From: Callorhinchus milii
Taxonomy: Eukaryota
Length of the DNA stretch: 64,000 nt
Direction: 5' to 3'
NCBI RefSeq assembly: GCF_018977255.1
Contig: NW_024704757.1
Location: 16,058,001-16,122,000, forward strand
Shown: positions 1,681-56,800 of the stretch, in pieces
How positions within the stretch are numbered: position 1 is the first letter of the stretch
Layout of the letters: every line of letters begins with the position of its first letter
Translations under genes and position numbers: made by a program
The notes under the pieces: model-generated
Told to the model about the DNA's origin: nothing
What the model saw: the letters and a program-made list of their open reading frames with translations, nothing else
Database searches by the model: none

Positions 1681-1811
1681 CAGACCACTGCCAGCAACGT
1701 TAGCAGGAGGGGGGGAGGGGTGTGGGTGGGTTAGGTGCTGGGTTCACTACTGGCTTGGTCGTTCCCTCGGATTCCTCGTTGACCGGCTCCTGTCGTGTTT
1801 GGTTTTCCCAG

Positions 1812-7636: not shown

Positions 7637-9876
7637 GGTCACAGATCTTCTCTCACGCTCCTTTCTTCAGAGAAAAAGAAATCTGGAAAAGAGCAAGTAA
7701 ACAGGAAGGTCCACGTGAATGCGAAGAAATGCGAAGCCCCTGATGTGGTGCAGCTACAAACAATGCATGAATTCACACTTTTCCATTGCCACACATTCCT
7801 TCCTGCTTTCTCCTCTCTCCCATTCCCCCTTCACCCTCCATTTCCATTGATCACCAGTTGCCCTCAAAAAAGAATAATAATTTGGTCACTCAATCCACGG
7901 CTGTTTGTGGGGACGCTGCTGTGCGCAATTGGCTGCCGCGTTTCGCCCACAAAATATAGTCAATTGGCTTTACGGTATATACTGTGAAGCGCTTTGAGAC
8001 GTCTCGAAGACGTGATAAGGCGCTGTATCGAATGCAAATGCGAGGAAAGTTGGCAGCACAATGTTGTAGCGAGGACACACACTATCCTGTGCAGCTGAGC
8101 CAAACACACCAGGAAACTCAATCCCTGCTCTAGTGCTGAGTTGACTCATCTGAGTCCAGGCAGTGAAGATGGTGATCAGTGATCAGACAGGAGGAACGGG
8201 CTTCAGCAGGCAATGGCTGCCACTGGCCAATCCTGCTTCTTGTAAGGTCCTGGCGTGAAGTTATCAGTGCATTAAAACACACATCATTATCAGAACAGAT
8301 CAAACATTTCTTCCACTGTCGACAAACTGTAAAAATGTGATACTTTGTAATGTGATAATTATCCAAAGGAAACGACTCGTTTTTCACCCCCAAGCGCTCT
8401 GAGACGCTATCCTACGTGGAGGGCGCTGTATAAGGGCAAGTTGGTGTCGTCGTTCTTCAAAACATAAAAAAGCTGTAACATGATAGACTACAGATAATAT
8501 ATTGGTATTTATAATGTATAATAATCCTTGCATTTGATGTAGCACCTGGTCAAGTTGAAGCATCTCAAAATGCTTCACGGCATTTACTGTAAACGCTTGT
8601 CCCAGTATTTTGTAGGCAAACACGGCAGCCAATCTGAACACAACAACGTCCACAAACAGCTATGAAGTGAGTGACCAATTTGTTTTAATTTGGGGAGAAT
8701 GTTGGCCAGGAAACCAGGAGAAACTTCCTTCTCTTTGAAAAAATGTTGCTGTTGGAACTTTCAGGTGACGGGCAGACGAGACCTCGGTTTTAACGCCTCA
8801 TTCGAAGGTTGGCAACTCCCAACAATGAGGTGATAAGAAGTCCGACCTCGTCTGGCCTGAGGTTAGGGCAACTCCTCAATTTCACGGCCACAGCGCCCAG
8901 TCCACCCGCCTGGCATCGGCGTGGGGAGTTGGGAACACTCAACTCAACCCCTGCCACTTTCTGCAGAGGCTAATGTGTGTCCAGGAAAATCTGGGCTGGA
9001 GGGGGCTGAGGGAACCCTCACTGGTGCCAATGGCACATACACAGTCACACACAGTCTGATCTTAGGACACAGATCTCATGCTCTCAGCTCTGAAGCTTTG
9101 ATGTAGAGGAGGAGGAAGTATATCAACATTATATATAAACAGAGCGAGCGAGCTGGAGTACGTAATCTGTTTACTTACAACCATCATCGTCTGTGCTCCA
9201 CAAATGTTAACACGGAGCAAAGCAAGTTGAAAGCTCCTTACAAGCACGTTAAACACTGATATTAAACCACTGACATGTCTACGCATTTCACCCACGGCAT
9301 CGCTTTAACTCTCTCCTCCCCCCACCCCCTTCCCCCCAAATACATCAAGAAGACAGACAGAGAGAGGAGGCAAATTTCAAGCCTCACTTCCTTGGTATCC
9401 CAGTTAGATAAACCCAACCCAAGGGAAGACCAGCAGAATTGGCTCGAGCAAAGAAGGACCAGATCCATTCAGTCCGCTTTCCACCATGATGGTAGTCACT
9501 TGCACATGTCATCGTGTCCCAAACTATACACTATCGCCCCCCAGATATTATTTCCTAACAGAAATCCATCTCATTCCTGTGACAAGGTCAGTGATTAAAG
9601 CCTAGACCGTGAGACTCTGTGAAATAAACCACAGTCACACACACACAGAGTTCGCTCAAACCATTCGATCGACGCATTTTATTGTTATTCACATTTACAT
9701 CTGCAGCCAATCATTCCCCATCACCACCAACAACAACAACAACAACAACCTGCGATTACACAGCGCCTCTCAGACAGCGCAGCACCTAACCCAGAGCACA
9801 ACTTCAAGAGAGAATATACAGACCCTCTCCTGACCAGAGCGCCCTGACTGCTCTCTACTGATGGCTCATTTGGGGG

Positions 9877-22377: not shown

Positions 22378-25300
22378 TCAGACTTTCTTTAACGCAATCA
22401 TATTTATTTTGTTCCTCAGCTCTGGCAAATGCTTAGCGTTCTGCCTATCAATGGCCGGAATGACCTGATCACAGCAAACAAGAACGTGAAACACAAGTGA
22501 ACAATTCAGATGATTTCTGCAGTGAACTTGAAACTCCACTTCAGTTTTTTTGGAGGGTTCAGCCCGGTGCGGAAACCCATCACCATGCTTAAGAGTATCC
22601 AATTCAGGCAGAGTTCCACATATATATGTCTGCCACCTACATTTCTTGTGTCTAGAATGGAGATTACACTCTCTCTTGTTTAATTAATTCCAGAGAGTAT
22701 CATATCAGGTTGGCAATAGCTAAGGCTTGAAGACACCACAGTTTGCGCTGGGGTAATATTGCAGCTTAACAAGATAAAGTCACATAGTTTACCACTGAGA
22801 GTATGAGAGCGCTGTCTGGCAAGCTTCCTGCTGCTGGTCCAGCTGGGAATTAATTGAAGCCAAATGGTAAAAATTCTTGCTACCAAGTGGCCAGTCTGTC
22901 CCTTCCAAGTCTTGTTGACGAGCCAGGCTGGCTGGAGTGTCATCAACAGTGCCCTGGGGTGTAGTGGAATTCACCTGGCTCAGGAATCAGACTACCGTGC
23001 AGGGTTGACTTGATTTCTGACATTGCCATGGCTGGAAACGGTTCAACTTTAAATCAATGATATCCTGAAAGATTTCCATCAGTGATGCTCGAGAGTCAAG
23101 ATAGTGTGAATTCCCCCCCCACAAGCTCACAGCAAAAGCTCAGCACATTAGTGCTGTTCAAACATGCAGTGGCAAGATGCAAGTTAACACCTGGGACACT
23201 CCACCGAGAGGAAATCAGGTGCTAACAAGGAAACCAACAAAATCACTGCAGGCAACTGTAATGCAGCCTCTCGGGTTTAGTTACAAACCCACACAGACAA
23301 GTACTCGGGAGCTTACAGTCCTCCCTGATGGCTGGGCTGACGTGGGACATGGATAAAGAGCAGATCACAAAATAAAGTGGATTAGGATACAACAAAACAT
23401 CAAAGCTACATGCAGTGTCTAAATTGCCTCTGTGTCTTCTACAACCCTCCCCCAACAACACACAAAAAAACAAATCTGCTCCAAAAACATTAAATCAGAT
23501 TAACCTTAGACATCTAGTCACACTGACCTTATTTTGTAGAAAACTGTGAAGTGTCTGTTCCCACACACATTCGTTCCCCTTCAGTCTGAAGGGACAATGG
23601 TACATGTTAGCTAAGCTATCGATTGGGAAACTATCAAACTTCTCAAACTAAATCGACTGTAATATTTTATTCAATTACTGAGATGAGTTAAAATGGTCTG
23701 TTAAACGACTATCATCGCGGACACTATTCTAAAGGGGAGAATGGAGAAGAGTGCAAAGCAAATCACGAGACCCAACCGCAAAACTCATAAAGAACACAAA
23801 GGGGTTGGAGTAGATGAGTTGGGTATCTATTGAACATCATTAAATATCAAGGACGTGATCGACAGCCATGAAGGGAATTATAAATTGCGTCAATGATGTA
23901 AGTATTTTGGGGGATACTTATTTCCTTTCCAAATATCTCATCAATATCATTAAAAAACGGAAAAGCTTCAAAATAATTCTTGTCCCTAAACCTAATTTCA
24001 ACTGAGCTGAATTTGTACACAGGTTGTTATTGAGCGAGGGAAAAAGTCAACAACCCAACTCGGGTGTAGAAACACTCACTCTTGCCAGGCTTCCACGAGA
24101 ATCTGGACCATTTGCATGCTGTTGGCCTGCACGCAAGGGTGCGTGTCAGACAGGAAGATATTCACAAAGTCACAAACATAGCCAGCGTCGTGACATTTAA
24201 ACCTGAATATTGAAACAAACAACTAGTGAGGAGCAACACGTACACTTCTAATGGCACCTTTCAGACTGGGAAATCATCTTAAAGCACAATCGATTTGCGG
24301 TGCAGAGTGTATGACTGACTATACATAAGAAAGACACAATAGAACTCACGGAAGAAAAAATCAGTAATACCAAGGTCAAAGCGCTGAGATTAAGGAGACT
24401 TCGACTGAAGACTCATTATATGAGAAAAGATAATCACTGATCCTCACAGCAACAAGCTTACTCTTCTAAATATAATAATCCTTGCATTTGATGTAACGCG
24501 TTATCATGTCGTCGAGATGTCTCAAAGCGCTTCACAGAATATACTGCAAAGTGAATTGACTGTGTATTTTGGGGATGAAATGCAATGTTTGGACGCAAAA
24601 GTGTCATAGCACTGACTGCACAAACCTTCCTCTCTTTCTCTCTGTCAAGAAAAACCCATATAAATGTTCCCAGTGCCAACACCAGTATTAGATAAAGTTT
24701 ACTTACCCCTCAAGCAACATGCCCTTATACATGTAAAGGTTTTTTCCCAATAGTATGCAGAAATGGCGCAAGTTCTCCTCCTCCACCCTCAGCTTGTCAA
24801 GCAGGAGTTTCAGTGCCCACACATTCCTCTAAAATGCACAAATAGCATTGGTCAAGCGCAAGGAAATCCAGGCCCGTCTCCATCCGAACCACTTCACCGC
24901 TGACCGGCCACATCTACATGGAGCTGACAGGCTTGAGATTTGGATTGCGCGGGCCAAACACCAGGAAAAGTGCAGGCTGGTCCTCGGGGAAGGTTGGAAC
25001 TTAGAAAATGTCGCAAACAGTTTTTGATCTCGCAAATTTGAAAGCATTTGCTTTAGTAAGCGTACTTCTATGAGGAAGGAGTTACTTTCTCTTCGTTAAC
25101 AAATTACCTCCTGCTCTTCGTCAGAAAAATAAAGTTTTGAAAGGAGACAGGGAATTTATAGAGGTACATGAGATTGTACAAAAGGTCAGATTTTAATTGT
25201 GCCATCATAGCCATCTAGCGTTCTCCCATGGGGTAGAGCGCAACTGCCTGTTCTATAACTGGGATTTGTAAGGAGGAAATAAAAATGTTTCAAAGCAAAA

Positions 25301-28300
25301 ATAAAGCAGTTACAGTAACCTCGCTGATCTTACCCCATAAGCTAGTAGTAGCTGCAGAACCATGTACATCGTGGGCAGTTTGGTGTGCCACATCTGGACG
25401 AAGGCAATAGTCACAAGGATTAACATAGCTGCCTTGCAATCCTGTGAACAGCAGTACAACTCCATGTTATTGTTCACTCAGCCTCTGACACAACTTACAC
25501 TCTGGCGAATTACACAGTTAACATCCAGCAACATTCATTTGTACAATCATTCACTTTTGAAAAACACAGGAACTGAACTGAACCAAACAGCAGAGACACC
25601 TGTGCAAAGGACCCTCATTTTACCCACAAAATGAAAGCATCCGTAATTATAATATAATAATCCTTGATTTGATCTAGCGCCTTATCATGCCTGAAAGCTC
25701 TTCACAGAAATTGTGGGCGATATGCAAAATTATCTTCTGCCTTAGGGCATTCATTCACCAAGTTTACAGTACATTCTGTGAAGCGCTTTGGGACGTCTAG
25801 AAGACGTGAAAAGCGCTATATCAAATGCAAGGATTATTATTAAGTTTAATAAAGCCAAGAATTTACATTTGGATTAATTAGCAGGTAGTTTATCTTTTTT
25901 TTAAATAAATTTGACATCAATGCTATGGTCACTGGGCCAACTGTGCCTCTGTGCTCAGTGCAAACTGCTTGTAGTCCTTGTTCCCTTTTAACCCATTACT
26001 CTAAGACCCACACATCAACGGAACATTGTGAATTCTTCCCCCTCCCTCTGTGTCAGACTCCGCCATTGTCATGCGCTCTGGGGTGAAGTGGGCTGTATAA
26101 ATGCATTGTTGTTTTGGAGACGCAGTGTCCTTATTAGCCACGTACCACGGACAGGAAGACTTTGGGCAAACCGACTATTCCTTTCTTCAGATCCTCCAGG
26201 ATGATGGCAGCCAGGCCCGCTGTGCTCTGATGACAAAAGTACAATGGTTTTATACTAATCCAGGAAGCGGGCAAGGATTTCTAGCTCATGCTCTAAAACC
26301 ACAGCTCTCCTGACAGACTCTATAACTTTTGAAGGACATCGCCTGCTGGGACACTGCTAGGAGTGTCAGGAGGCCGTTGTGACTGAGTAATGCGTGCAGG
26401 AAGCCAGCCAGACCTGCTGAAGCTGCACGTGTACAGTCCACGCTACACTGAGCATCAAGGAGTTTGTCTTTAATATTCTTATGACTTACAATCAACAGAA
26501 CTGTTTTCAGCAAAAATTAAGACTTTTTTGTTTACAAATTTATACACTTAAAACTTTCTGGCTTTCTATCTCTATCCTGGCTGCTTTCTCTCGGAGAAAC
26601 GGGATCAGAAGTGTCCGGATCAAACAGTTGAACTGTAGTCTGGAACAAAATCAATCTGCAGTGGTGCTTTTGGGAACTGTTTAATGGATTACCTTTAGCC
26701 ACACTGAATGAAAGAAAGGGAGTTAAACTGAGCTCTCGCTTAAAATCGCACAGTACAATCCAAAGGTTTAGGTATCAAACTCACTTCCACAAACTCGGCG
26801 GATGGAGCTTGGATCACCTCACTAAGTAACTTGCCATTTTTCCCCAATGTGAAAGAGTTGCATTGAATCTCAATCAGTTTGCTCCAGCACTGAACCTGAA
26901 CAGGACAAAATAAAACACACAGCACAATAATAATCAGGTACCGTTAAACCTCGGTTTGAACCACTGGGGCCCCAGGCTCCAGGGCTGGGGATTAACCCTC
27001 TGAGAAACCTACAAATAGTTCTGTGCCATCAGACTGAGACACGAGGAGCAGTTGAAATGATAACTATTTTCCTCAAATTTAGTTTTCCTGCCACTCCTCC
27101 CACCATTACCTAATCCGAGAGGATAGATGTGTTCTGCAAATGTTTGCCTATAAACAACTGTTTGGTCTACAAAAGCAGCATTAAAGAAGCCAAGAGGATA
27201 ATAATAATAATGCTTGCATTTCATATAGCGCCTTATCAAGCTGTTGAGACGTCTAAAAACGCTTCACAGAATATATTATAACAGGGATTGACTGTATTTT
27301 GTCCCAAAAGTGTTTTTGTATTGAGTGACCATTTATTTATTATTATTATTATTTTTGAACAACCGGGTTCCTACTTACTGATTGGTAAACGCAGTGTGTA
27401 TTGTGTGAAGTAAGGAAAGTTGTCCAAGTTTTCGCCCTTCCTGGGAATGGAACCCGGGTCCTCTCGTTTGCGAGGTGAGCACACTAATCACTACGTTACG
27501 GGACTGTACACCACTCATGTAAATGTAGACACATGACGCGTTGTTGAAACAGTCGGGTTCAAATCTCCAGAATTCAACTTGAAACCTTATCCTGACTACT
27601 TATCGTACTTGACTGAGGTCCTAAAGAAGCATTTGGTGCCAATGGAAGCATTTCTCAATATAAATAAACAATAACCTTCACACTGAACATCAATCAGAAA
27701 GGGAAATTAGGTGAAAATTAAAATACTTACATCTTTATAAAGTGCTTTATTTACAAACAGAATCCGGAGCAAACTTCTCATCATTACGTGGATTTTTACT
27801 GAAGAATCACCTGGAAATAGACAATGATCGACGCAAGATTTAAACCCTCTATAATCAGGCAAAATGACTTTCCTTGGTAAATCGACTAATAACTGGGTTC
27901 CTACTTACTGCTGGGTAAACGGGGGCATGTGGATTAAGGAAACTTGCCCAAGGTTTCGCCCCGCATAGGAATCGAGTGCTCTAACCAATACACACATGAG
28001 CAGGATTGATATGCCCTATTTACCACCAGAGATGCAAGCTAAAAGGACCATTAGCATCGAGGCTTTCTACAAAAACTCTCAAAGCCTTGCTTCCTTCCCC
28101 AACTTCAGGTCACGCCTGAAGACCTTCCTCACCGCCCATGCCTAATCAGCTCCCCTGTCCCCGGCTCGACAACATGTTCCGCCACTGTCAAACACTCTGG
28201 AACGCTACCATGTGTGAAGGGCACCATATAAACAAAGTTGTTGTTGTTGAAGCGATTCACTGAAGTCAAAACATGTGATTTTTAAAACTAGATAGGTTCT

Positions 28301-31300
28301 CGATAGTGAGTGCCATTATTTGTACCCATGGGACAACCATAATACAACCAGGATGCACACATGACATGATTCAATTTAAAAATGCAAAGCTTTAAGGCTT
28401 ATAGCAACAATAAAGGCCAATTACATTTCCTTGATCTACACAAAGTAATGCTCCTGTGGAAAGAGGCAATTTCCCAAGAATTTGGGACTTGTCACATCTG
28501 GTAACAGTTAATTAAAAGCTTTTAATTAAACACATCTTCCTCTTCTGGGTCAGTGCAGCTATGATCGAAATTCCCATGTCAGCTGGTAAGTGGAGCAAAA
28601 CCTGAGATCAACCGTCACTCACAGTGCAGCAGAACAAACTGTACCAGAGTCACAGTCTATTTTCTTACATTTCTTTCCACTCGGCCAACCACTCGATTGG
28701 AAATCTTCCACAAATTGAAATGGAATTTTTCTTTGTAGAATCATAGAATCTCACAGCACAGGAGGAGGCCATTCGGCCCATCATGCCGTGCCTGCTCTTT
28801 AAAAAAGAGCTACCGACTATTCCCCACTCCCCCGCTCTTACCCCGTAGCTCTGCACATTTTTCCTTTTTAAAGTACATATCCAATACCCTATTGAAACCG
28901 ATTACTGAATCTGATTAACATGGCCAATGAACAGCACAGCATATTGTAAGTAAAAATAGAGCACAGAATTAATTGATAGATAATGCAGAATGTGTCAAAG
29001 GGTGAAGCATGAGAAGAAGACTTGGGGGTGGATTGTGGACTCATTATGTCCAAACAATGTGAGGCAGGCAGCAACAAACAAAGCAAACAGTATATCAGGA
29101 TTGATTGCCATATCAATAGAGTTCAAATCCCCAGAAACCACGCAGAAGGCATACGATGTTCTAAAGGTTCTGCGTAGTTCTGGTTGCTGTAACATAAAGG
29201 GCCAAACAGGCCCCAGAGGCTGTGTAGGAGCGAAACAAGGCAAATTCCCAGTGTTAGGCCAGACTCTGAGAAAAGACTGGTTATGTAAGGCTCCATCTCA
29301 AAAAAGCGGGGAACTTACAGAGGACTGCAAGTTACTAAATGGGATAGAGAACATGGACCAAGGTAGTTTCAGGTAGGCAAAAGTGCTTACAATAGACACA
29401 AGGAAATATTTCTTTAGACAGAAGGTTATGTCAAGCTGAAATGGGTTACCGGGGCAGTGGATCCAGTTGAAACAAAAACAGAAAGGTGTAAAAAGAGACC
29501 TAACAACGAGAAAAGGGGTTAAAGGCTGAAACGAATCTTAAGAGTATTTTACTTTTGTTTCTCAAATTCATTCGTTGATAAAAAAAATTGCCGGCTGACC
29601 TTTGACACAAACCCAATTTCCTTCCTCTGAAAGGTCACTGCCAGGAGGTACGGTTTCCGTTTTCAGAATCTTTAAGTAGATCGAGTACTGGATGGGAGAC
29701 AGACGGCAGGCAGTGCAGCACGAGAGGCTGGAATTAACATGGAAAGCCTGCAGAGCGTGGTGAAAATCTCCATATTTGCAAATGTAGAACGGAACTTTGT
29801 CTTGCAGTGCCTGCAACCTGCTCGAAAGGAAACAGAATTACACCACAGGCCAAGGTGCAGGGAGTAAAATGAAAACTAAGGCAGTAGCAATCACAACACA
29901 ATTTATAATAATAATAATCCTTGCATTTGATAAGAGCGCCTTATCACATCGTTGAGACATCTAAAACCGCTTCACAGGATACACTGTAAAGTGCATTGCC
30001 TGTGTATTTTGTGGGCAATAAAATGAATGTTTTTCACAAGTTCACAAAATTGATTTTCTGAAAGGCATATATAATCGAATGCAAGGATTATTATCATTGC
30101 TATTAAAGATCGAATCAGAAAACATGCGCCCTGCAACACACCGCACTCACTTTAGTGTATCGCTGCATTTTACCACTCGAAGGTATCGCACCAACTCCCT
30201 GTACCTGGAACAGAAACAGTTAAACTGTTAGCACATCAGTTAATGTCAACCGAATGAAGCGCTTTGAAACGTCTCAAAGACGTGATAAGTCACTATATCA
30301 AATACAAGGATTATTATTAATTACCACAAACCTCAGTGACATTTGAATGGCGCAGTCAGTATTTCCACGATAGTAATGAAGTGCTTAAACAGGAGATGAG
30401 CATTGCGGAGATGGCCGGTACATCAACTGGGCAATTACACTTGAGATGTTACAAAAAATTGCCTATTATCATGTGGAGATTGCTGCTGTGCTTGAAAGTT
30501 ATCTCCATCTCCACAAGACACAAACACACTGGAGTCATGTTCGAGCTCTACATCGTTAAGAGTTGCCGATGAAATGTTAAACTGAGGTCCTGTCTGTTCA
30601 GGTGGACGTTTAAGATTCCCTGTGGCACTGTTCGAAAAGAGACTGGAGTTTCTCTCTCCCCTTGCCCTTGCCAACAATCCCCCAGATTAAATCGGCCTTT
30701 TACTTCATGGCTGTTTGCGGATGTTGTTGTGTGCAAACTGGCTGCTGCCTCCGGGTTCATCTACAAGTCACTTCATTTGAGAGCAAATCCTATGAAGCGC
30801 ACTGAGACATCCTCCAACATAAAAGGGACTGTATCAAAGACAAGGATTATTTATTTATGACTTCCAGTATAACGTGGGCCCAGAGTAAACTCACACTCTG
30901 AACAAAGCCGTGTTCAACCGGAGTGCGTTCTCGGGAGGCTGCACGGTATTCAGGGCAAGATCCGTTCTACAACATCTCCCTGAATGGCAATGGAGTGGGA
31001 AAGCTTCATGCAACATGGCAGTTTAATGAGGCATTTACATTTGGGTTGACATTTACTCCAGCAGTTAAACTCTGACTATTTATAACAGAGGCTGGCTCTT
31101 GGAAGCTCATAAAACATTTAAACATTTCACTTTAACCATTACTAGAAAAAAATACAATTCTTGATTTGCTCGAGTCAACATCGTGGCCAATTTCATCCAT
31201 TACATCTCAAACAACTGCAGACAGGGCATTTTTTTACTTGCAGCACTCAGCAGTGTTCTGAAGAGCTAGGAAACATTAATGAAGGCAGCTCACTTCACTG

Positions 31301-34300
31301 CGATGGGATACAGCAAATGTAGATGACAAGCTTGGCAATTTGCCAGGCCAGAAAAAAACGTGGAATGGTTTTACTGTGGCAAGAGGCACTTCTCACTTAG
31401 AAAGGCTAGTGCTCAAACAGCAAAACATTTAAAATGAAGCCTTCTGAATCAGTTACCGTGAAGGAATGGCATAACACAGCAACTGTAACTGCAGTGTTGT
31501 GGAAATGATATCATCCACTTAGAGAGGATGCTGCAAAAACGTAATTTGACATTTTCCTTTATACAAAAGTATTGAAAAGACAATAAATCAGAAGCTGTGG
31601 TTGAAACAAATACCATTCAATGTGTTCAAGAGAAAACTTGCTGCGTAAATGAGAGAAGGGACTGGGGTAGGGGGGGGTGTAAAGAGGGGAATATTATTTA
31701 ATTATTTATTTCAACATGTGGCTGGTAAACTCAATCCACAGTAACAAATTTACATTTATACACAGTAGCGCCTTTCACGTCGGGAGGACGGACGCCTCAA
31801 AGCACTTCGCAGGATTTTACTGTAAGGTGCAGTGTGTATCGTAGCCAATGTACACCGACCGAGAAAGCTATAGTTTTGAAGAGGATTCAAACGTCGTCAT
31901 AAAACATTTTGCTGTTATACCACCATTGTGTGTGGGACACTGCTGTGCGCAATTGGCTGCTGCGTTTCGCCCACAAAATATACCGTAAATACACTTCACA
32001 GTATATCCTGTGAAGCACTTTGAGACGTTTTGTCGACCTGATAAGGCGCTATGTCAAATGTGAGGATTATTATTATTTATTAACGTTGTGTATAATCAGC
32101 TTACTCTTCTCTGGCCTCCATTCTTTCCACCCGCGCCTGGATCACGACAATCTCTTCCCATAGCACTTCCTTCCTGCCTTTCTTCTGCCGCTGCCCAGTG
32201 ATGTTCTGTCCTCTCAGGATGGAGGTGAGGAAAGGGTCATCCCAGGACAGCACGTTGAGACTGCGAGCAAACAAACAAACACACTAACTAACTCGATCAT
32301 TTTCATGGAGGGTCGTTGACAAAGCTGTACTTCAAAGCTAAGACCGAATACATCAAATTCTGGATGTTTTGAAATGCTCCATAAATAAGACAAGCTCTCA
32401 CCTGTTTGTGAAGGCAAAGCAAAAAGAAGGAAATGGCAGAGTTTGATAGAACCTTTTCAACTTATCAAACAGACAGGGAGGAAAGTCGCTCAGTACCAGC
32501 ATTTTCTGTAAAGAGTTGGCAATTCTGTAATAAAAACAAGGACGCAGTGATTGCGAACTTTATCAGCTGTGACAAACTGCAAATATGACAGGTTACAACT
32601 CGACACCCAGTCCCATTCCGATATTTCCAATCTTTACGACGTTGCATCTCAGATCAATGCTGGATATGAAAGACTTGAGACATATGTCACCTTTTTCTCC
32701 CGTCCTGTGGGTCCATATAAAGTACTTCTGCTTTGTGCCCCTGTGATTAATGTTTTATGGTCTGTGCTCCAATGCACACGCTTTCAGATTTGAATGCCAG
32801 TAACAGGCAAGGCATTCACATCAACTGTATCATATTAATAAACTTTTGAAATTTTCACCTTGACGCTGCAACAGCAAATGTAAATGGGGGGGTGGTTGGG
32901 GGGTGATGGCATAACCTTAAGCCTTGAGGAGAGGGAAGGGGAAGGAGGATGGAATCCAGGATGCAGTTCCAGAGAGTGGGGGTAGAATGGCTGAAACTTT
33001 ACTCACTGATGGTGCGGTGAATCAGCCGGGGAAACAAACCAACAGAATGTTTCTGTAAGTAAAAGGCTGACAGGCACAGACAGTGGAGCNAAAAAAAAAA
33101 CTACAAAGGGGTTCAGGTAGGAGCTAAACAAGTTGCTGTCAACTAAAAGGATTCGGGGCTGTTACCTTAAGAGTACATTAAGACACATCTTGCAGGAAAG
33201 TGATTGGGAGGCTTGATGGACCCGGTAGGCCCGTAACAGTTACTATAAAAAGCTGGTGTTATATTATTAGAGATAGTGCATTCTAAAGTTCAATGTAATC
33301 CTCGCGAAGCAAGCTGACCCCGGTGTTAACACAACGGAACAGAAAAGTGGAGCATTTGAAGAGTCTGAAGTTGCAGCTTGATCAGAGCAAAATCATGACT
33401 TTCACAAGGACGTTTATGTAGAGCTTTGGAATACAAAAACTTACCTGTGCATAAAAAATGGTACAGCCAGTTTGGGAGTTGAAGACATTAGATTTAGATC
33501 TGTATTGGTAACTCTGTTAAAAGAAAAAAGAATGAATGTGGTTCAAGCAATGACAATGGTTAATGTAATTTTTTTTAAGAAATCTTTAAAAACACGAGAA
33601 AGATTTGAGTAAGATAATAGAAAATGATATATATATTAATGGCATAAATGACAAAAAGTCAAAAATGGAATTGGACAAGGAGTCAGAGTAAAGGGTATGC
33701 AAACAGGAACCATTTCATAGTCCTTTAAATACACAATTTCCTCATCTCCAAGGAGATGGAAACCAGAATAATACCGGAAATATTTTTAGAATAATAATCC
33801 TGGCATTTAACACAGTGCCTTTCACGTCAGGACGATGTGTTAATTGCTTTATAGAATTTCACTGTAATATCCAGTGACTGTGTATTATATAAGCAAAGGC
33901 AACATCCAATTTGCGCACAACAATGTCCCACAAACAGCCATGGAGTGATGAGTGATAAATCCGATTTTTATTGGGATGGGGTGGGGGGGGGGGGGGCAGG
34001 ACACTGGGAGAAACATCTGCAGATTGGCTGCCAGCGTTCTCCGTCACAGGAACAAATGTTTGCAGTAAAAAACAAAAAGGAACTAACTGTGAGAGCTGTT
34101 TGTGAAAGAGGATTTCTTTTGCCGCACCCATCATCATAACAACAGCTGCTTTGGGCTTCTCCTGGTCTGCCTGACACAGAAAATTGTCCACCAATTCAAA
34201 CACAGCCGTGTAACTGCAGGCGAAAAGGAGGGAATGTCAGCAAAATGCAGCCAAATTTTCCCACATTACATTCTTCACCACGCAATTCATCCCAGTTAAC

Positions 34301-37226
34301 AGAACATTCTGCAGATTTCCAATGAGTAGTAAATAGGTTGCAAAGGGCAAGACTCAAATGACAAAGTATTTACACTTCCTGCTTGCTAAAAACACCAGTT
34401 TTATACAGTAACAACCGTTAAAATAATAATCCTTGCATTTGACACAGCGTCTTACCACGACTTCAAGACGTCTCCAAGCACTTCACAGGAAATACTGCTA
34501 AGTGAATTGACTGTCTATTTTGTGGGCGAAATGCGGCAGCCAATTGCGCACATCAGTGTCCCCACAAACTGTCGTGGATTGAGTGACCAAATTATTATTA
34601 TGATTATTATTATTGATTTTTTAAGACAGTGACAGAAAACCCAACCCGGAGTTGATTCCTTTCCCTCTCTAATTTCAGACTCAAACTGGTCAAGTCACAT
34701 ACCTGTATAACCGGATATCAAAATGATTTATCAAACACTTTTCACAGAACACGTTGAATACGTTGTGGCAGGAGCATGTGCAGGGAATTGTATGGTTGGG
34801 AACACTCATTCCCATCAAATATTTATTGTATTCCACGGCAAGAACCAAGGAAAACTTCTGCAGCAATTCTCCTGGAGAGCAATCAGAACACAATACATTC
34901 AAAAAGTTTTCTCCAGAACCTTCAAAAGACAAATAGAGCCCTTCACAACCTATTGCCAGCCTGTGAGTGGTTGTTTATTTCATCATCTGAGATTACAATT
35001 CAGATTGCAATTTTCTCTCCCCCTGCACGACGCTGAAAGTGCTTGGTTCTCACATCTGGTTACCCTCGAATCCTAAGTCATTATGGTTGCATTTCCCTCA
35101 AAGCTGAGGTAATAAAACCATACTAAGCACAGTTTTCAGAGGTTGCATCAAGTGAATAGGTTTTCAATATTCCAACAGCCATTGAGCCTCAATATAACCA
35201 CAGGATTGGGCAGTTCTTACCTCCACGTCGCAGCTCAGCGTCAATGTCCACCAGGTTGAAGTTGAACATCGAGAGCGTGCCCTTCAGTGCTGCATCACGA
35301 TGTGCTTTCCAGTACTTGCTCTTGTTGTGAGCATTGCAATGGCAGAGCGACGGGACCTTCCAAAATTCGCACTGTGTCAATAGGGCAAGAGATGCATTTC
35401 TTTATCAGGTAAAAGAGAGCGAATTCTGATACCATTGCGAAAAATGTGTGCATGGAGCTTTTACACAAAAAAAAGCAGCATTGGAGGAGCCAATAGTAGT
35501 TGTTAAAGTGATTTTTATGCTGAGAACAGCTTTTTGCCTTGAGATCTGTCTGAATTTCAATTGAATGCAATAGAAATCATTCATTTCTTTTTCTCTCGTA
35601 AGGGATACAGCTGACAGAATTGCACCCACCTTGGAAACAGGCTTGTCGCAGATATAACAATAGCACTGTTCACAGAAATTTAAATTATTGTCCACTGGCT
35701 CCGAGGTATCATTTTCTCTGCGCCTAAAACGTGCAAGACAATTGGAAACTTTTCAGGCAACGTATGTCCCAGAAGTGACTTCAATAGACTTACTGTTGCA
35801 TAGCATACAGGAAGTGATGTCTGTGGTAGCCATTTTGTAGTGCTCGGTCTGACTTTATGGACCCAAACCACTACGATGTGACAAGGATTGAATGCATTTG
35901 GGATGTCCTCCCGACGTGAAAGGCGCTATACAAATGTAAGGAGTAAGTGTTAAACAGCTAATGGATTAAGGTGCCACATTACTGACCCTCGTCCTCAATT
36001 TCTTACACCCACAGATTGGACCATTAGTATAACAGTAGACCCAACTTCCAAGAGAATATGTAATATAATTATTATTATAATTATAATATAATAATCCTTG
36101 CATTTGATATAGTAACTTATCATGTCATCGAGACGTCTCAAAGCGCTTCGCAGAATATACTGTAAAGTGAATTAACTGTATTTTGTGGGCAAATAATAGT
36201 CCAACTTCCAGGAAACATGGAAAGGTCGTGGACCCGAAACGTTGACTCACTTTCCTTTCTCCATAGATGCTGCCTGACCTGCTGAGTGTTCCCAGCTCTC
36301 ACTTGTTTTTCTTCCGGGAAACATTGTGTTTGATTTACACTGGGAAGGCTCCACGCCTGCATGGAGGATCCCAATCGGCCCCTAATGGTACCTACGTGAA
36401 ACTCTGTTCCATACAGTCATAGCGAGCGTGGGGCATCACATTCCCTTTCTTACTGTACGTAATTGCGAGCCCACATTCCTCATCCACCACCTCAGCGCTC
36501 TTCTCCTTAGATGTACCAGCTACTACCTCTGCAAGGAAATTAAAACATTGCCAGTGAAACAACGTCTTTCCATGTTCACCCCCACTCCTCCTGGATTTTA
36601 ACATCGCTTGTCAAGAGCATTAAAATCATAAATAAGGATGGGGTTATGGTGGGTCTGAGCAGCTTGCATATTCTGTATAAAAGATTTCTATGTTTTTATA
36701 TATATATACACAGATTAATCCTGAAGTACTAAGTCATTAGGGCAGTAAATTGCTCAGCAGTAAGTAAATGAACACTTGAAATGATGTACACGTCAGAGAT
36801 CATCACTAAATGATCACACCCCAGAGCAGGCAGTTACTCACACACCTACAAGCGACAGCCTGAAGTGTGCAATAACAGGCAGCCTGGGAGCAAAGCTGCC
36901 TCATCCCTCCCCCTCAGCATATATCGCAAAAAACACAACAAAGAGACAGACATCAAGTATTAATAATAATCCTTGAAAAGTACAATCAAAATTAGGGAGA
37001 AGAGTATCGGAAGTTTAAGTGCACGATACCGAGCTTCGTATTTTGTCCACTCAAACCCGCAAGGTTCGTTTGCAGTCTGAGAAACGTCAGTCAAGCACAT
37101 CCGACAAACAGATAACCCAGCCGTACCTGGAGGATTTTCCACTATGAGCACCGAGAATTCGCTGTCGTTTTCTAATTCAGTGTCGCTGATTACAATGACA
37201 CTCTCATCTCCCTCGTTTGGCTCCAT
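22378..37226 (-). CDS. Uncharacterised 720-aa protein (19 coding exons) with SIM-like N-terminus and RIN13-like Cys/His module; resembles the fish zgc:112980-type family as recalled
   Basis: Exons 37226-37127, 36528-36396, 35723-35630, 35371-35221, 34871-34703, 34213-34088, 33513-33445, 32524-32402, 32260-32105, 30204-30151, 29817-29600, 27810-27731, 26895-26785, 26226-26146, 25441-25334, 24828-24707, 24202-24080, 23585-23528, 22464-22378. All are GT-AG with matching phases, total 2163 nt, no internal stop. Confidence 0.88.
27198..27505 (-). mobile_element. SINE copy with internal deletion
   Basis: Head and tail match the family. Confidence 0.8.
28985..29480 (+). mobile_element. Degenerate CR1 ORF2 fragment
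   Basis: EEDLGV-like and KANS..G.I-like remnants; AGGAAATATTTCTTTAGACAGAAGGTT. Confidence 0.5.
30545..30855 (+). mobile_element. DeuSINE-like core and tail (similar copies at about 8520-8830 -, 40580-40790 +, 44300-44460 -)
   Basis: GATGAAATGTTAAACTGAGGTCCTGTCTGTTCAGGTGGACGTTTAAGATTCCC core. Confidence 0.65.
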
Positions 37227-37573
37227 TTGAGCCTCCGCTCAGAACTGTTAGCGAGGAGCAGACATTGTGAGAACAGCTTTTTTTTTAAACAACTGCCGCC
37301 CCAAACCAAAGCCGGTCTTTCTCAATTCAAATGCAGGCGGCAACGAGGACAATAATTTTACATCTGTATCGCGCCTTCCACAGGACACTTTACTCTGTCC
37401 CAACTTCAAGCGAGCGTCGACTGCAGAAAAGTATAAAGAAATGAGGACGGATAAGTCAAGAGGAAAGCAAACGCAGCCAACAATCCCCCAAATAAAACTG
37501 GTCATATATTCTACAATATATATAATAATCCGTACATTTGATATAGCGCCATATATAGAGAGGGGGGGGGGGG

Positions 37574-38879: not shown

Positions 38880-38990
38880 CCTTTACTTTCTCCGGTCGCC
38901 AACTTCACATTTGCCGCTCAGCCGTCAGCACTTCCGGGTCACACCCTCAGCCCCGCCCCCGACAACCACTTCCGGGTCAACGATCTCTCC
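38880..38990 (-). promoter_or_regulatory. CpG-rich promoter and non-coding exon 1 of the 720-aa gene
   Basis: Two CACTTCCGGG ETS/GABP sites (38929, 38967), GC box 38951-38960, minus-strand GTAAAG donor at 38886. Confidence 0.55.
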
Positions 38991-39000
38991 CCAAAATCAC

Positions 39001-39270
39001 CCCCAAATATTGGCCCCAAAGTCACCCCAAATATTGGCCCCAAAGTCACCCCCAAATATTGGCCCCAAAGTTACCCCAAATATTGGCCCCAAAGTCACCC
39101 CCAAATATTGGCCCCAAAGTCGCCCCCAAATATTGGCCCCAAAGTCACCCCAAATATTGGCCCCAAAGTCACCCCCAAATATTGGCCCCAAAGTTACCCC
39201 AAATATTGGCCCCAAAGTCACCCCCAAATATTGGCCCCAAAGTCGCCCTCAAATATTGGCCCCAAAGTCG
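39001..39270. repeat. 24-25-bp minisatellite, 11 units (CCCCAAATATTGGCCCCAAAGTCA)
   Basis: Read directly; unit ends run gtca,gtca,gtta,gtca,gtcg twice, then gtcg. Confidence 0.95.
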
Positions 39271-40261
39271 CCCCAAACATGGCGCCCCTCACGTGGGGTG
39301 GTGTCCGCGGCACTTACAACAAATGTCGAGACTTCATTGACTCGAGTGACTGATCCTTTATTGGGAACCGCTGGTGAGAGATGAGCACGAAGATCCCACA
39401 CGAGTGCACAGGTTTCCATGGGGTTCAGGTGGACCTCAGGGTTTTTTTCTCACAAGTCGAGTTTTTAAACTGTTCTCTCTTTCGAGTCAACGTGAACACA
39501 CGGAACGTTTCCGATTGCCTCGAGATATTACGTACAGATGAGGTCAGAGCGGCAAAGCTGGGAAATGGTACTGAACGGGTGAAAGACGGCAATGAGTCCA
39601 CATTAGTTCATCAGCTAATATGGTGCGGACCAGGAAAACACTCCCCTGGCTTCCCCCTCCCCATGTCAGGGAGGTAATGATGTCACCTCTAAGGCTTCGC
39701 CCTGTATGACATGGTTCGAAGGAGCTGCTAATTTGTCCCAGTCTTATTCTGCGGCGCTGTTTCTCTCTCGCGCGCCTCTTTACTAGCCCGCGGGGATGAT
39801 GTACAAGCTGAGACGCACCCTGTTTGTACGAGCGCAACTCCCACCACTCTCCACGCAAAGGAAGATAAGAGATTGAAATCAGAAAGTGGCAAAATATGCT
39901 TTTTTTTGAAAAAAGAAATGGTTGTGGATCTTGCTGGATTTTAGCTTCAAATCCTGAAGTTAGGAAAATTAGGAAAACCACTAAATAGGAAAAACAACGT
40001 TTCTCTCAGTGGGTTATTAATATTAATGTTCTGGTGTTTGGCACCTGAGCCACTTGAATCTGATCCCACTTTCCCGCTCAGCTCCCTACCTCCATTATTC
40101 TTTCCTCATTTGTCCTTCGGGTTGGACTGGCTGATGTATGACTTTACAGATGCGGGAGCCTGGATAGCGAATGGAGCCGAGCAGTGGAGGGAGAGGTTAA
40201 GGGGTGAAATCCATTCTAGGTTACGAAGGGTTATTAACGCCTCCCATCTATGGAAACTGCT

Positions 40262-48628: not shown

Positions 48629-51600
48629 TCACCGTCCGCCCATCACAAAGCTGGACGCTTCACACTCATCCGCCTCATCACTCGAATTCTTTGTCTTCTC
48701 TTCCTCCTCACTGCTGGAAGCTTTGTCACAGCCTGAAGCACGGAGCAAACACAAGGAAAACGCACAGTTATACGTTTGTGACGAGAGTTTCATCCCCGGT
48801 CCTACTGAGCAAGCTACAGGTCCTACAGAATCCCAAGTGGAGACCGCTCAGTGCTGCAACATATTGGGTATATTAGATATATTATATCCAAAGACCTAGA
48901 TGAGGGTTTTGAAGATGATGAAGATTAACACACTGTGTCAGTGCTTACCCTCCTCCACTGGTTTATTCGGCTCTGGTTTACGTTTCTTTGCCAACATTTT
49001 CTTCTCCTTTAACTTCTGTCTGTAACAAAAAATAGATTTTGGTTTGAACGCAGCCAGTTAAAGTCGCCGTTTTCAGCTGGTTCAACAACCACCCCCCACC
49101 CACCACCACCCCCGGTGCACATCACATTAAGGTCCCTAATGCCTCTGCCAACCCGCTGCCCATTAGCAAGCAGCATGCGCCCTCCGTGGCCTGCAAGATC
49201 TCTGCCCACTGAGAAGGGTGTTCCGTGCCAGTCAAACTTTCACCGCCAGGAAAATAAAAGGTTTTTGCCTTTACCGTTTATTTCGGCGTTTGGCGGTCCT
49301 CTCCTCGGCAGCTTGCTTGTTCTGGCCCAGTTTAGTTTGGAATTCCTCCTCAAGACGTTGCTGCGGCACGAAACAAGTCACAAAGTGAACCGGAGCCACG
49401 TGAGGACAGAGCCAAGACCCAGCCATCCATCAACTGGCAAGTTACACTATCAGGGCATCACTGCCAACACTTCCCACCCCTGTTTACTGCAAGGATATGA
49501 GGATAGAGCGGGGGAGTGGGACTGACTGGATAGTTCTTCCAAAGAACAGGCTCAATGGGCTGAACAGCCTCCTGTGCTGCAATATTCTATGATTCCCTAT
49601 AATAGTAAAGCTCAAGCTACAGTGTGGGACGAGCAACATTCCTGGGCTTATTACTTGTCGAGTGGCCGGATACATTGATCGTTCAACCCAGAGCCCGGCA
49701 AGGGACCTTGCTGTGTACAAACCCAACTGCTGCATTTGTTAAAAGAACAGTCCTGACAATTGAGCTTCTGTGTGAAGTGCTCCGCGGTGTGAAGTATCAC
49801 ACGCTCACCTTGACCGCCTGTTTTTCCATGAACTCCTCCCTCATGTACTCCCGTCGTCGCAGGTGTCGGTAAACGTGGAACTCCCCGCTCCCAGCCCCAG
49901 CGCTCGAGCCTGTCACCGGAGCAGAGTTCCTGCAGTCAGTCAATACCGGCCACCAAACCTCACAGCAATCCAACTCCAAACACTTCTGAACTCTTAAAGG
50001 TTCCGTTATAATAACAGCACCAGTTTCAGACCCTTAACTTGCTACAAGAGCTACTCCATATATCTCAAACTTTATTGTTAACAAGAATCTGCAATTCCTT
50101 TCTGAAACCCTGTGTCGTTCCCTGTTCTGTTGCCTGTGCTGACAGCCAGTCCCACCACCTGCCAGGCAGCCTTCTTACTCCCTCATTCATTTGTGTGTTA
50201 TTTTGTTTTGACGAATTTGACCTGTCCGTTCTGGAACACTCTGAGAACGCACATTGTTTTGTACACTACAGCGTTCGTCCCCCACATACCCCCTCTCCTC
50301 AGTGCCCCCACCCGCCCCCCCAGCCCGCACTCACCCATCACATCGCGGACAAATTCAGGCGGAGGTCGGGGAGCCCACTCCTTGGGTTTCTCGGGAATTG
50401 GAACCTGTTTGTCCTTCAATGAGAAATTGAGTCGTTCTTAGTCAGTAAAGATTTGAGGAGATAATAATAATAATCCTTGCATTTGATATAGCGCTTTTCA
50501 CGTCGGGAGGACGTCCCAAAGCGCTTCACAGAACACACTGTAAAGTGAATTGACTGTATATTTGTGGGCGAAACGCGGCAGCCAATTGCGCACAGCAATG
50601 TCCCACAAACAGTCGTGGATTGAAAATGACCAATTTATTATTGCTTTTGGTTTTGGAGGGATTATTATTAGGCTCTGTGTGGAGTAAGGAAACTAGCCCA
50701 AGGTTTCGCCCTCTGCCTGGAATTGAACTCAGGTCTCTCACTTGCAAAGTGAGTGCTCTAACCACTGAGCTACAGGACTCCATATTGTAGAGAGCCCAGT
50801 CTGCTCCCAGAGACAGTTACACAGGACGCTGGTTTGGCCTCAGTTTGTGGCTGTGATCTCTCATATTAATATTCAGTATAGAACAAGGTTCTTTGTATGT
50901 TGGATTCAGGAACATTGAGCAGCCCTTTCCCGGTCTGCACTGAGTTATTGATCTCAGCCTGGAGCAGCAGTCAGGGCTGTGACTGGTCTCAGTTCCCAGG
51001 GTTAGGGAGGAGGGAACTTCAACCAGTATTCCCTCCCTCCTGATTGCAATGGAACAGTGGAGGGCTGGAGGATGAAAGTGAGAGCAGATTGGAGGATAAG
51101 CTTTGATACCCTCCTGCCAGTCAACTCACTGTATGGCCTCAGACACGAGAGGGGATAGAGAGCAACTGGCACCCATATAATACGATACGATTGACATTTT
51201 GACAGTGTCTTTCACGTTGGGAGATGTCGCAAATTGACAACCAAAACTTGGTGATGGGCAGAAGAAAACAAATGAGGCCAAACGGGATAAAGATTATCGA
51301 GAGATGAAGAAACAGGAGCAAATGACCGAGCCACACGGCTCAATGTTACCGCACACAATCACACGGTCCCGGGAAAGTCATCGGTTTCTCAAACCTTGTC
51401 GGCATCTTCGGAGATTCGCAGCGTCTGAAATAAACAAAAAAAAAGGAATCATTCAAGCCATCACCCGGCCGCACAGGGCAGCGCTGAGGAGGACACGGAG
51501 TCAGGAGCGTCGACTGCCAGGTGGAATTAGGAAAACATTCCAGAACGAGGAATTCCCTGCTGCAAACTCTGGGACACACACGCACGCTCACACACCCTCA

Positions 51601-53842: not shown

Positions 53843-56800
53843 TTAATGTACTTTGCTTTTCTTCTTTTTCTCTGGCCTTAATTTTGTTGTTGTTGTTTTA
53901 ACATCGCTTTGATTGGGTTGATCCTCCTGGGTTGAGGAAACTTTCTTAATTCTGTATCTTTCCCACGGGTGAGGTGTCTCAGCCACAGGCATCCATGTCA
54001 GCCATTGGTAGTAGAAGCCACGAAAGCCATCGATCTTTTCCAGGTAGGTATTCTTTGACTTGTACTAGAAATGGAGAAAGGAGACAGATAGTGAATCTAC
54101 AAATCCTGTACTTCAAATTAGCACTGGATAAAAACTAACTTTAATACAGAGAATTTCCTCTCTCTTCCACACCTATCCATGAGATCAACAGAGTTTGAAG
54201 CTTATTTATACCATCAACGTGGGAGATGCAGCTCTGGATTCACGGCAACAATAACAAATTACGTTTGCATAGTGCTTTTCTCGTTGGAAGGACATCCCAA
54301 GGCACTATATAAATGTAATTTTGCAACAAAGGCACAATCAATATTACACTTCACAGCAAATCACAAGAACGTGTGGGCGAACATTCAAGATACTTTGGAA
54401 ATAAATCAGTGCTTCTTTTTCACATACCCGGTCAAATTTGGGAGGGTAGCTGGCTGCAAACTCCAGTTGTCTAAGAACGACCTGGTTGGGTGAGACCTGA
54501 TTTCTGGCCATATCTCGGAGGACGTCAATGAGGAACACGTAGTCCAGCTGCTTGGCTGCAGCGTTGATCAGTGTGCTGTACACGTTGACATTGGGGATAA
54601 CTCCAGACATCTGGAAAGAATGATTTTCAATCAACACCACAGTATATCATTCTAAAGCATTTCTGTTTCGTGGGTCCTTGTGCTTTCAGTGCAGATAGAA
54701 CAAGAATGGCATCTCCTGAACTCCTGTGAAGTTCCTGCAAACAATTAATTTTGCAATAACTTGCATTTATATAGCGCCTTTCACGCAGGATAGCGTCCCA
54801 GAGCGCTGCCCTGGTGAAGAGCTGGAGGGTTACCTTCATGTCAGACAAGAGCTGGAGTCCGTCGCAGCTTTTCCTGCAGGCGATTGCCAGGTTACAGAAG
54901 GTGTACATGTTGGGTGTCAGGCTGCGCTCTGTCAGCAAGCGGATCACCGCCTGGCGGGAGACAGAAAAACACACACAACACCTTCAGTATTGATCTGGAT
55001 AAACTCTGAACCTAAGAGCAGTCACATATAGCAGGTGAATGAGGGCTGGCACCTCTCATTCGATTCCTTACCTTTGCCCCCTCCAGGTCACCCATCTTGC
55101 TCCTCTTTCTGACCAAGGTGTTGAAGAATGAAATGTCTGCTTTCACCCTGTGCTCGTCCATGAGAGTCAACAAGGAGGACTCGGAGTCGTTCTCCAAGTC
55201 CATCACGTCAACCAACAGTGTGAAGGTCTTAATATCTGGCCGCACGCCGTCTGCCTTCATTTTACCGAGGAGGCCGCTCAGATTTCCGATCAGCGCGAGT
55301 CTATCACACGGTCTCCCTGCTGCTCCCAACGAGATAACGTTCCCTTTATGAACCTGGAGGTCCAGGAGGTTAAGTGGGCCGTCACTGTGGCCTGAGACAG
55401 ACAGTTTGCTGGCGTTTGAATCCACTGTAAAGATTTGGGTAGCGGGAACCAGATCCGTTGATTGCTCTTCCCTTTGCAATAGTTTGTTTTCTTGACTTGG
55501 GCTGGACAGTGGCTCTGGTGCTTTGACTGGTATCCATGTGGATTCGGGATTGATTCGCGCTGTGGATCCAGCGCCTCCAGCTTTGTCTCCGTCCTCGGGC
55601 AGGAAGGAGACGTCTGCAAATATCTGTTGCTCCAAAAGGTCCACGTCCAAGCTCCCTGTGCTTTTCTCCTTGTGCTTCTCTTTTTGCCCTTTCAGCCTCC
55701 GCACCTTCCTGCGCTGCTGCAAGCTCCGCACGCTGTCATCCTCGTCCAACAGCAAGCGAGAGGCCATGGAGGGCTCCCCGATCCCACAGTCCCTCGCGGC
55801 TCGCAGCAGCAGGTTGTAGCTCTTGGCATCGGGCCGGATCCCCAGTTTGAGCATCTGTCGCCAAATCTACAAGACAGACAGAGAGATCACTTCGAGGCCC
55901 CAATCGTAAAGGGTTCACAACATCACATCATCAAACATTAAAGGATTCGCTCTAAAATGGCCCCATATTTGTCTTAACAGTTTGACAATTGGACTTCGAT
56001 AAGGATTTGCCATGACACTCCTTACACTGATTTAGGAGCTACCTATTTTCCTCTCTAAGAAGGGTGGTGGTGGTGGGAGGGGAAGAGTTGCAGGCATCTG
56101 TGGTATTTTATAGATCTGCCACAGGATCTCTAGATAAAAGCTCAGAACCCGATGGAGAATAAGGAATGAGTAAAATGTGTGACCTTTTGACATTAGAGGC
56201 ATCACATCCAATGCAAGTCTTATTTATAAATAGGCTGAAGAGCCTCCTTCTTCGAGACTTCTCTCGTGATTTCCCTTCACCTCGAACACACATGCTCTTT
56301 GGCAGATGCACCGACTGACCTGACCAGACCCGACCCTAATGGACCAAAGAGCTGTACAGTCATTACCTGCAAAAGGCACCTGAAGCCGTTCTCGGTGTCG
56401 TTGATGCATCCAATCATCAAGTTGCTGAATGTGATCTCATTCACCTCGTGACCACTGTGAACTATTTCCTGAAAAAAACACAGAGGAAGCTCTGATCAGA
56501 ATCAGTCTAGTTAACCGCTAAGTTCAGCTAACTCTATCTGTAGCTTTGAGTAGTTATTTGTACTGCTGTCAGTCTTCAAAGAGACACAGATTAAGCCTCT
56601 TTTCCTTAAGTATTCAACATCCTTGGGAAGGAAAAGTACATGTATTTGGACATGGGGGGGGCAGAGATCACGATTGGGCTTGGCCGCAATGCCTCTCAGC
56701 ACTCACATGAAGCATGGTCAAATGGGTGAGGGGTCTGGTGCCTGTGAGATAGCAGCCTGGAAAAGACTCAGGAGGAAGAGAGAAAGTTGGTGGTTTCCCT

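Follow-up and report, generated by a model that had tools for sequence, protein, structure and literature searches.

Analysis of a 64,000-nucleotide stretch of Callorhinchus milii DNA (the window) showed that the product of the zgc:112980 orthologue carries SUMO-interacting-like motifs (SIM-like motifs) in front of a RIN13_N Cys/His module, and comparison with its relatives supported the same arrangement across eukaryotes, plants included. The gene, its orthology and the RIN13_N domain family were already known. The pan-eukaryotic pairing of the module with SIM-type motifs, a second Cys4 site, a predicted helical solenoid and a candidate unsolved zinc fold are added here.

The gene is real and spliced, and encodes 720 residues. 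Its RefSeq protein (XP_007904295.1, 720 aa, the longest isoform, named “uncharacterized protein zgc:112980”) maps exactly onto 19 GT-AG exons that run from position 37226 down to a stop codon (TGA) at 22378, and a search with exon 4 alone returned the Callorhinchus milii protein zgc:112980 at 100% identity. The gene is single copy (four of six genome matches were its own exons, and the other two had E above 0.1). An earlier interpretation of the letters alone, the sequence-only reading, had quoted several peptides and a spliced N-terminus, and all were recovered on the minus strand: VIVIS at 37199, SVLIVE at 37154, PHARYDC at 36433, FCEQCYC at 35677, CEFWK at 35371, and HCNAH at 35341. They are joined by four GT-AG exons (37226-37127, 36528-36396, 35723-35630, and 35371-35221) that give residues 1-159 of XP_007904295.1. 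This span takes in 4 of the 19 coding exons, with residues 160-720 outside it; the reading was right that an uncharacterised gene joins SIM-like motifs to the module, but it missed the second Cys4 site and the solenoid of about 580 residues. No paper naming zgc:112980 was found in a literature search. The features are collected in Table 1.

Four sequencing runs were compared; their RNA origin is a guess, none being recorded as RNA, and their contigs give no level or tissue. The pieces listed for a 2661-letter contig of one run fall in coding exons 1, 5, 11, and 19, and the gaps between them equal the summed lengths of the intervening exons; a contig of another run joined exon 1 straight to exon 2. 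From this spliced-model spacing and the skipping of introns, the zgc:112980 orthologue is therefore transcribed and spliced as modelled. Contigs extended 59 and 422 letters past 37420, and the splice acceptor of the first coding exon at that position therefore points to a non-coding exon further upstream.

Table 1. Features of the zgc:112980 orthologue, with positions in the window
Feature	Positions	Strand	Residues	Content
Whole coding span, zgc:112980 orthologue	22378..37226	minus		19 coding exons, 720 aa
First coding exon	37127..37420	minus	1-33	5' UTR 37420-37227, ATG 37226
SIM-like motif 1	37173..37202	minus	9-18	S-VIVI-SDTE; hydrophobic core, then Ser and acids
SIM-like motif 2	37137..37157	minus	24-30	S-VLIV-E
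Coding exon 2	36396..36528	minus		Proximal acidic/beta motif and P66-H67-x-R69-x-x-C72 of the module
Proximal acidic/beta motif	36493-36455	minus	46-58	Possible third SIM or structural strand
Coding exon 3	35630..35723	minus		N91, C95-x2-C98-x-C100-x2-C103 of RIN13_N
Coding exon 4	35221..35371	minus		C110, W113, C119, H120, C121, H124, W130; helical region begins
Coding exon 5	34703..34871	minus		Second Cys4 site C192-x-C194...C202-x2-C205 at 34782-34723
Coding exons 6-19	22378..34213	minus	216-720	Predicted helical solenoid
GQNITG and basic loop, conserved	32211-32155	minus	339-357	Within the solenoid

The RIN13-type module proposed in the sequence-only reading was confirmed. The link is right but not new, because the Pfam family PF27679, named RIN13_N in the Atlas, is already assigned to these vertebrate proteins: precomputed matches to it were present for the protein of the window and for each of the 120 relatives listed (120 of 156 matches listed). 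An older Pfam release gave no PF27679 match on the window's protein, which fits the earlier date of that release. BLASTP against the Eucalyptus RPM1 interacting protein 13 aligned residues 59-145 (E 4e-10, 28% over 93 columns) and showed no similarity outside the module, other stretches having E above 7. The vertebrate profile matched a seven-row profile of plants, algae, and protists at 99.3%.

The deep conservation claimed for the Cys/His residues also held in the orthologues. H67, C72, C95, C98, C100, C103, C110, C119, H120, C121, and H124 showed no variation among the vertebrate proteins aligned (55/55), which were retrieved with this region, so that part of the conservation is a selection effect. 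Nine of the eleven were kept, per position, in 37-38 of 38 relatives classed as non-vertebrate mostly by sequence, few of them being named. C119 (2/38) and H124 (16/38) are mainly vertebrate. R69, N91, W113, A123, and W130 were likewise near-invariant in the non-vertebrate relatives, and the exceptions noted were one Chlamydomonas protein with H-A for H-C and one legume entry without C95. The pattern PHxRxxC...CxxCxCxxC-x6-C-xx-W...HCxA is kept in animals, plants, and protists. With a ligand spacing of H-x4-C...C-x2-C-x-C-x2-C-x6-C...H-C, the module putatively binds two to three zinc ions through nine pan-eukaryotic ligands, or 11 in vertebrates. None of the 74 module members matched the RING, PHD, B-box, or IBR families (Pfam, E up to 1), nor did any of the 74 match a Pfam zinc-finger or nucleic-acid-binding family.

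Structure modelling predicted a compact fold for residues 61-135, with pLDDT above 90 when a deep alignment of 74 rows was used. In the first full-length model the module was unfolded (pLDDT below 50), and it folded only with the deep alignment. Foldseek found no PDB match to the module model up to an E of 10, a wide fold search reached a best Z of 2.1, and the viral library a best E of 3.8. Of three sequence-profile searches against solved chains, two found nothing and one gave 11 weak matches (best E 0.02). The module is therefore named only as a candidate new zinc fold, since an absence of matches is not proof.

In the passages of PMC12751080 that deal with them, SIMs are a loose motif with a four-residue V/I/L core whose flanks are acidic or can be phosphorylated, often at CK2 sites, and several copies together favour SUMO chains. 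VIVI-SDTE and VLIV-E satisfy the sequence definition (at least three V/I/L in the core, an acidic or Ser flank), and the N-terminal 60 residues hold 16 acids versus 3 bases. Of 121 vertebrate proteins, 118 have motif 1 and 114 have motif 2, with variable spacers; many of these proteins are isoforms or come from closely related species, so the counts are not independent. The strict motif count in the window's own protein was at chance (1 versus 0.53 in shuffles), and since this single-sequence count is not beyond chance, the support for the SIM-like words is their conservation. The SIMs of the sequence-only reading thus stand as conserved motifs that fit the definition and reach plants and protists.

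The non-vertebrate count used 48 of 59 relatives (11 were left out, with an N-terminus too short or no anchor) and excluded the 22 residues adjoining the module. It gave 42 acid-flanked SIM-like cores versus a shuffle mean of 6.7 (maximum 14, 500 shuffles), the patterns having been written after the sequences were seen and the shuffles not representing other acidic disordered nuclear proteins. At least one distal core was present in 32 of the 48 relatives and at least two in 10, with 16 showing no strict distal motif. VIDLT-type words occurred in 7/48 (0.14 expected), recurring in unrelated lineages, and basic NLS-like words in 29/48 (4.4 expected). LIR-type words were found in 3/48, with 7.2 expected, and WDR5-type words in none of the 48. 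Three land-plant proteins had acid-flanked hydrophobic cores upstream of the module, and in 37/59 non-vertebrate relatives the third acidic/beta motif preceded the module at a constant distance.

Residues 1-50 are predicted to be disordered; residues 1-40 had pLDDT 34-55, and both distal SIM-like motifs were unstructured in both models. Residues 46-49 and 54-56 were modelled as strands touching the module, because of which the proximal motif may be structural. Co-folding of residues 1-140 with a metagenomic SUMO2-type protein and two zinc ions, run without alignments or controls, scored 0.29 (mark 0.34), which speaks neither for nor against SUMO binding.

Behind the module, a helical hairpin carries the second Cys4 site, which was invariant in 55/55 vertebrates and could be recognised in every animal sequence of the alignment as far as the sponge; in hedgehog, one of its Cys is shifted. 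The four residues (C192/194/202/205) may hold one further putative zinc. Residues from about 136 to 720 were modelled as an all-helical solenoid, with pLDDT mostly above 85, and no enzyme signature was found in the animal solenoid. An iterated profile of residues 140-720 reached tunicates, amphioxus, and hemichordates, and sponge weakly. Structural matches to the solenoid were of the generic HEAT/ARM/TPR type (best Foldseek E 4e-3), and the best, obtained for the solenoid within the full-length model, had Z 9.6 over 96 residues (rmsd 2.3). Rif1_N, ZSWIM4, ZNF292/Rlf TPR, and DUF6880 were considered as homologues of residues 140-720 and rejected, with TM by query of 0.27-0.47, below the bar; Pfam gave these Atlas look-alikes no support in 20 animal proteins. 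Outside animals, one protist cluster and a single additional protein matched the helical region weakly, at 5-10 bits (0/30 reversed controls above 5 bits), and its presence there is not claimed.

With an E cut-off of 0.001, the full-length profile retrieved 1115 cluster representatives, and the best 150 of these, of which 20 are named, included lamprey, tunicates, amphioxus, hemichordates, a sponge, a diatom, and Chlamydomonas. Land plants were found in a separate search, and Atlas clusters add haptophytes. The vertebrate names among 120 of 156 listed matches covered sharks, sturgeon, coelacanth, lungfish, frogs, turtles, birds, monotremes, and marsupials. Of placentals, the listed matches included hedgehog, with full-length proteins of 687-739 aa, and two short entries with out-of-family stretches, one from dugong (237 aa) and one from black rhino (268 aa). 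The short entries hint that the gene has decayed in some placental lineages. Neither human nor mouse was named among the matches listed (120 of 156; best 150 of 1115, 20 named), a coverage too narrow for us to claim that humans have lost the gene. No relative was found in prokaryote genomes (0/83), and none of 600 pattern matches in viral contigs was one.

The animal architecture of module, Cys4 site, and solenoid goes back to sponges, and the label “vertebrate” given to it in the sequence-only reading was too narrow. Three land-plant proteins end in low-complexity tails after the module, two long family proteins have a PDZ domain at the N-terminus, and a Chlamydomonas protein carries two tandem copies of the module. 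In a diatom protein, the SIM and module are placed on an SNF2 ATPase whose best solved match is RAD5 (E 4e-43). Rad5-type enzymes normally carry a RING; no RING match was found in this fusion, which was the only one among 36 proteins scanned. Across these architectures the SIMs and the zinc module appear to be a portable unit, with the part behind it (solenoid, Rad5-like ATPase, or low-complexity tail) exchangeable.

A SIMC1-like nuclear adaptor that reads SUMO is, by analogy, the role to which we give about an even chance. It is taken as the most likely because the layout is that of SIMC1 and the animal solenoid shows no enzyme signature. The predicted-disordered acidic tail would dock its two or three candidate SIMs onto multiply SUMO-tagged proteins, and the motif type and tandem layout suggest that binding would occur with avidity; this binding may be strengthened when a CK2-type kinase phosphorylates the conserved Ser that follows SIM1. 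The predicted zinc module and helical solenoid would then bind and deliver a partner, probably in the nucleus. A role in chromatin or DNA-damage surveillance, for which the one Rad5-like fusion and the SIMC1 analogy speak, would be the weakest step, and plant RIN13 may likewise act in a SIM-dependent manner. Against the adaptor stand the chance-level strict motif count in the shark protein, the limits of the patterns and shuffles given above, the lack of independence among the vertebrate counts, the possibly structural nature of the proximal motif, the 16/48 relatives without a strict distal motif, and the frequency of the Rad5-like fusion (1/36).

The sequence-only reading had left the function as adaptor or ligase. 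Now that the helical solenoid is counted, the adaptor fits the full architecture better, and the ligase half lost ground with the lack of any RING-type family in 74/74 members. A ligase of a non-RING kind is the leading rival to the adaptor but unlikely, although several features agree with it. SIMs directly before a multi-zinc domain make up the RNF4-type layout in the SIM passages of PMC12751080. The acidic/beta motif keeps its distance from the module in the 37/59 non-vertebrates, the invariant surface-type residues R69, N91, W113, A123, and W130, none of them ligands, suggest a conserved partner site, and in the diatom the SIM and module sit on a Rad5-like ATPase without a RING match. This fusion is, however, a single case, the ligand spacing is not that of RING, SP-RING, or RBR, no such Pfam family was found in the 74 members, and the vertebrate SIM pair does not have the Pro-x-Arg-Pro spacer of ZNF451. 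The widest form of this explanation, to which we attach little probability, would make RIN13_N a pan-eukaryotic non-RING zinc fold that forms, with its SIM tail, a new class of SUMO-targeted ligase; it would replace the RING in the diatom Rad5-like enzyme, explain via SUMO how plant RIN13 acts on nuclear immunity, and have decayed more than once in placentals.

It is improbable that the zinc module is itself the targeting part, binding DNA, chromatin, or a modified nucleotide chain, with the SIMs only retaining the protein at SUMO-rich sites. The conserved aromatic and basic residues and the basic helix after the module (R69, W113, W130, R134) would suit such binding, as would the fusion to a DNA translocase, the NLS-like words upstream, and the tandem duplication in the Chlamydomonas protein. 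The 74 members matched no nucleic-acid-binding family, however, and the basic helix may merely pack on the helices that follow it, which are conserved in animals. The adaptor also assumes that the acidic-hydrophobic motifs are SIMs, and it is quite unlikely that they instead dock on some other beta-groove partner, such as a PH domain or a further ubiquitin-like fold, or pack back onto the module, with SUMO uninvolved. The chance-level count in the shark protein, the strands modelled at residues 46-49 and 54-56, and the looseness of the motif in the same passages (PMC12751080) would agree with this. Against it, both distal motifs were unstructured in both models, and the VIDLT-type words recur across unrelated lineages, which the LIR- and WDR5-type words do not.

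The pairing of SIM-type motifs with the module from sponges to plants offers a first direct and cheap test of RIN13_N function, including that of a plant immune regulator, and, whichever role it has, the module is a candidate for a new zinc fold. If the adaptor is true, it would be a SIMC1-like reader invisible to human-centred SIM screens, should humans lack the gene. A ligase, if true, would be a new class among the enzymes of SUMO-ubiquitin cross-talk.

Among known systems, plant RIN13 (PF27679) has the same Cys/His module and the same acid-flanked hydrophobic motifs upstream. Full-length similarity to it was not found, only residues 59-145 aligning, and plant RIN13 ends in a low-complexity tail, whereas the animal proteins have the second Cys4 site and the solenoid. 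The reported immune partners of RIN13 are plant-specific. The literature found on RIN13 consisted of passing mentions, and papers and supplements beyond the search may bear on the question. Such passages report that PAD4 is moved into the nucleus by plant RIN13, which acts via SNC1-EDS1/PAD4 (PMC8831314, PMC13326511), and SUMO changes are tied to SNC1/EDS1 autoimmunity in part of another source (PMC8514785). No SUMO link was found in the RIN13 passages of PMC8831314; one may nonetheless be published in the original RIN13 reports or in the Arabidopsis screen for SUMO interactors (Elrouby 2013), their supplements included.

The RNF4/RNF111-type STUbLs have clustered SIMs before a multi-zinc domain, as does the shark protein at the motif level (two, possibly three, within 58 residues), but the RNF4-type RING is absent from it, the spacing being different and no Pfam match being found. 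The Uls1/Rrp1-2-type proteins are SIM-SNF2-RING proteins, and one RIN13_N family member is likewise fused to a Rad5-like ATPase, but with no RING match there. ZNF451-type SUMO E3 enzymes have two SIMs with a short Pro-x-Arg-Pro spacer; in the shark protein, about 11 acidic residues without Pro-x-Arg-Pro stand in its place. SIMC1 (C5orf25), the SUMO-reading subunit of the SIMC1-SLF2 loader of SMC5/6, shares the layout of tandem SIMs, disordered N-tail, and alpha-solenoid, but it has no such zinc module, and the shark protein has no sequence match to any solved chain. In the passages of PMC9708086 on SIMC1, its tandem SIMs and alpha-solenoid localise a partner complex at SUMO-rich nuclear sites. 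SIMC1 serves here as a working analogy and not as a claim of family membership.

The region upstream of the zgc:112980 orthologue contained both CCGGAAGT words of the entire window (2 against 1.18 expected), a word which we take to be of the ETS type. The region with this pair and the adjoining tandem repeat is likely the promoter of the non-coding first exon. The predicted RefSeq isoform X2 was without the SIM-like motifs and without H67 and C72 of the putative zinc-binding RIN13_N module, and isoform X3, predicted to begin at residue 144, was without the module. The features of the window, including neighbours of the gene, are shown in the table.

Features located in the window
Feature	Position	Strand	Basis
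Both CCGGAAGT words, 38 bases apart, upstream of the zgc:112980 orthologue	38930-38975		
Tandem repeat, unit roughly 21-22 bases	about 38990-39280		
Isoform X2 alternative start exon, inside intron 2	36250-36324	-	RefSeq annotation
G-protein gamma subunit, two exons	5839-5940 and 7538-7639	-	Pfam G-gamma
PPR gene, presumably PTCD1-like	53951-59382	-	Pfam
CCCH-finger exon, presumably CPSF4-like	61906-62193	+	Pfam
Stretch assumed PRKRIP1-like	49654-49935	-	no Pfam support found
Stretch assumed CHTF18-like	1783-2001	+	no Pfam support found

The G-gamma exon pair, presumably GNG13-like, was placed downstream of the zgc:112980 orthologue, and the same G-gamma sequence was fused to the orthologue in two bird entries, which points to a conserved neighbourhood of the two genes. 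Among the placental entries P0129, P0156 and P0161, that of hedgehog was full-length while those of dugong and black rhino were short, and a patchy decay among placental mammals is therefore possible. The G-gamma adjacency is a guide to the site for seeking any human remnant of the gene.

Among non-vertebrate relatives, P0251 and P0270 combined a PDZ domain with SIM-like motifs and RIN13_N, and both proteins had another long region besides. P0270 carries the label “archaeon”, and it is probably a mis-binned eukaryote since the prokaryote genome scan gave no match (0/83). In P0268, from Cylindrotheca closterium, a VIDLT-type motif and RIN13_N were fused to a Rad5-like SNF2 ATPase in which no RING was seen; the fragment P0315 had its N-terminus in common with P0268. 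One mostly chordate RIN13_N Atlas cluster (rank 10) also contained Helicase_C_4 (PF13871) in 11% of members; a helicase may have been fused here a second time, or the gene models may be at fault.
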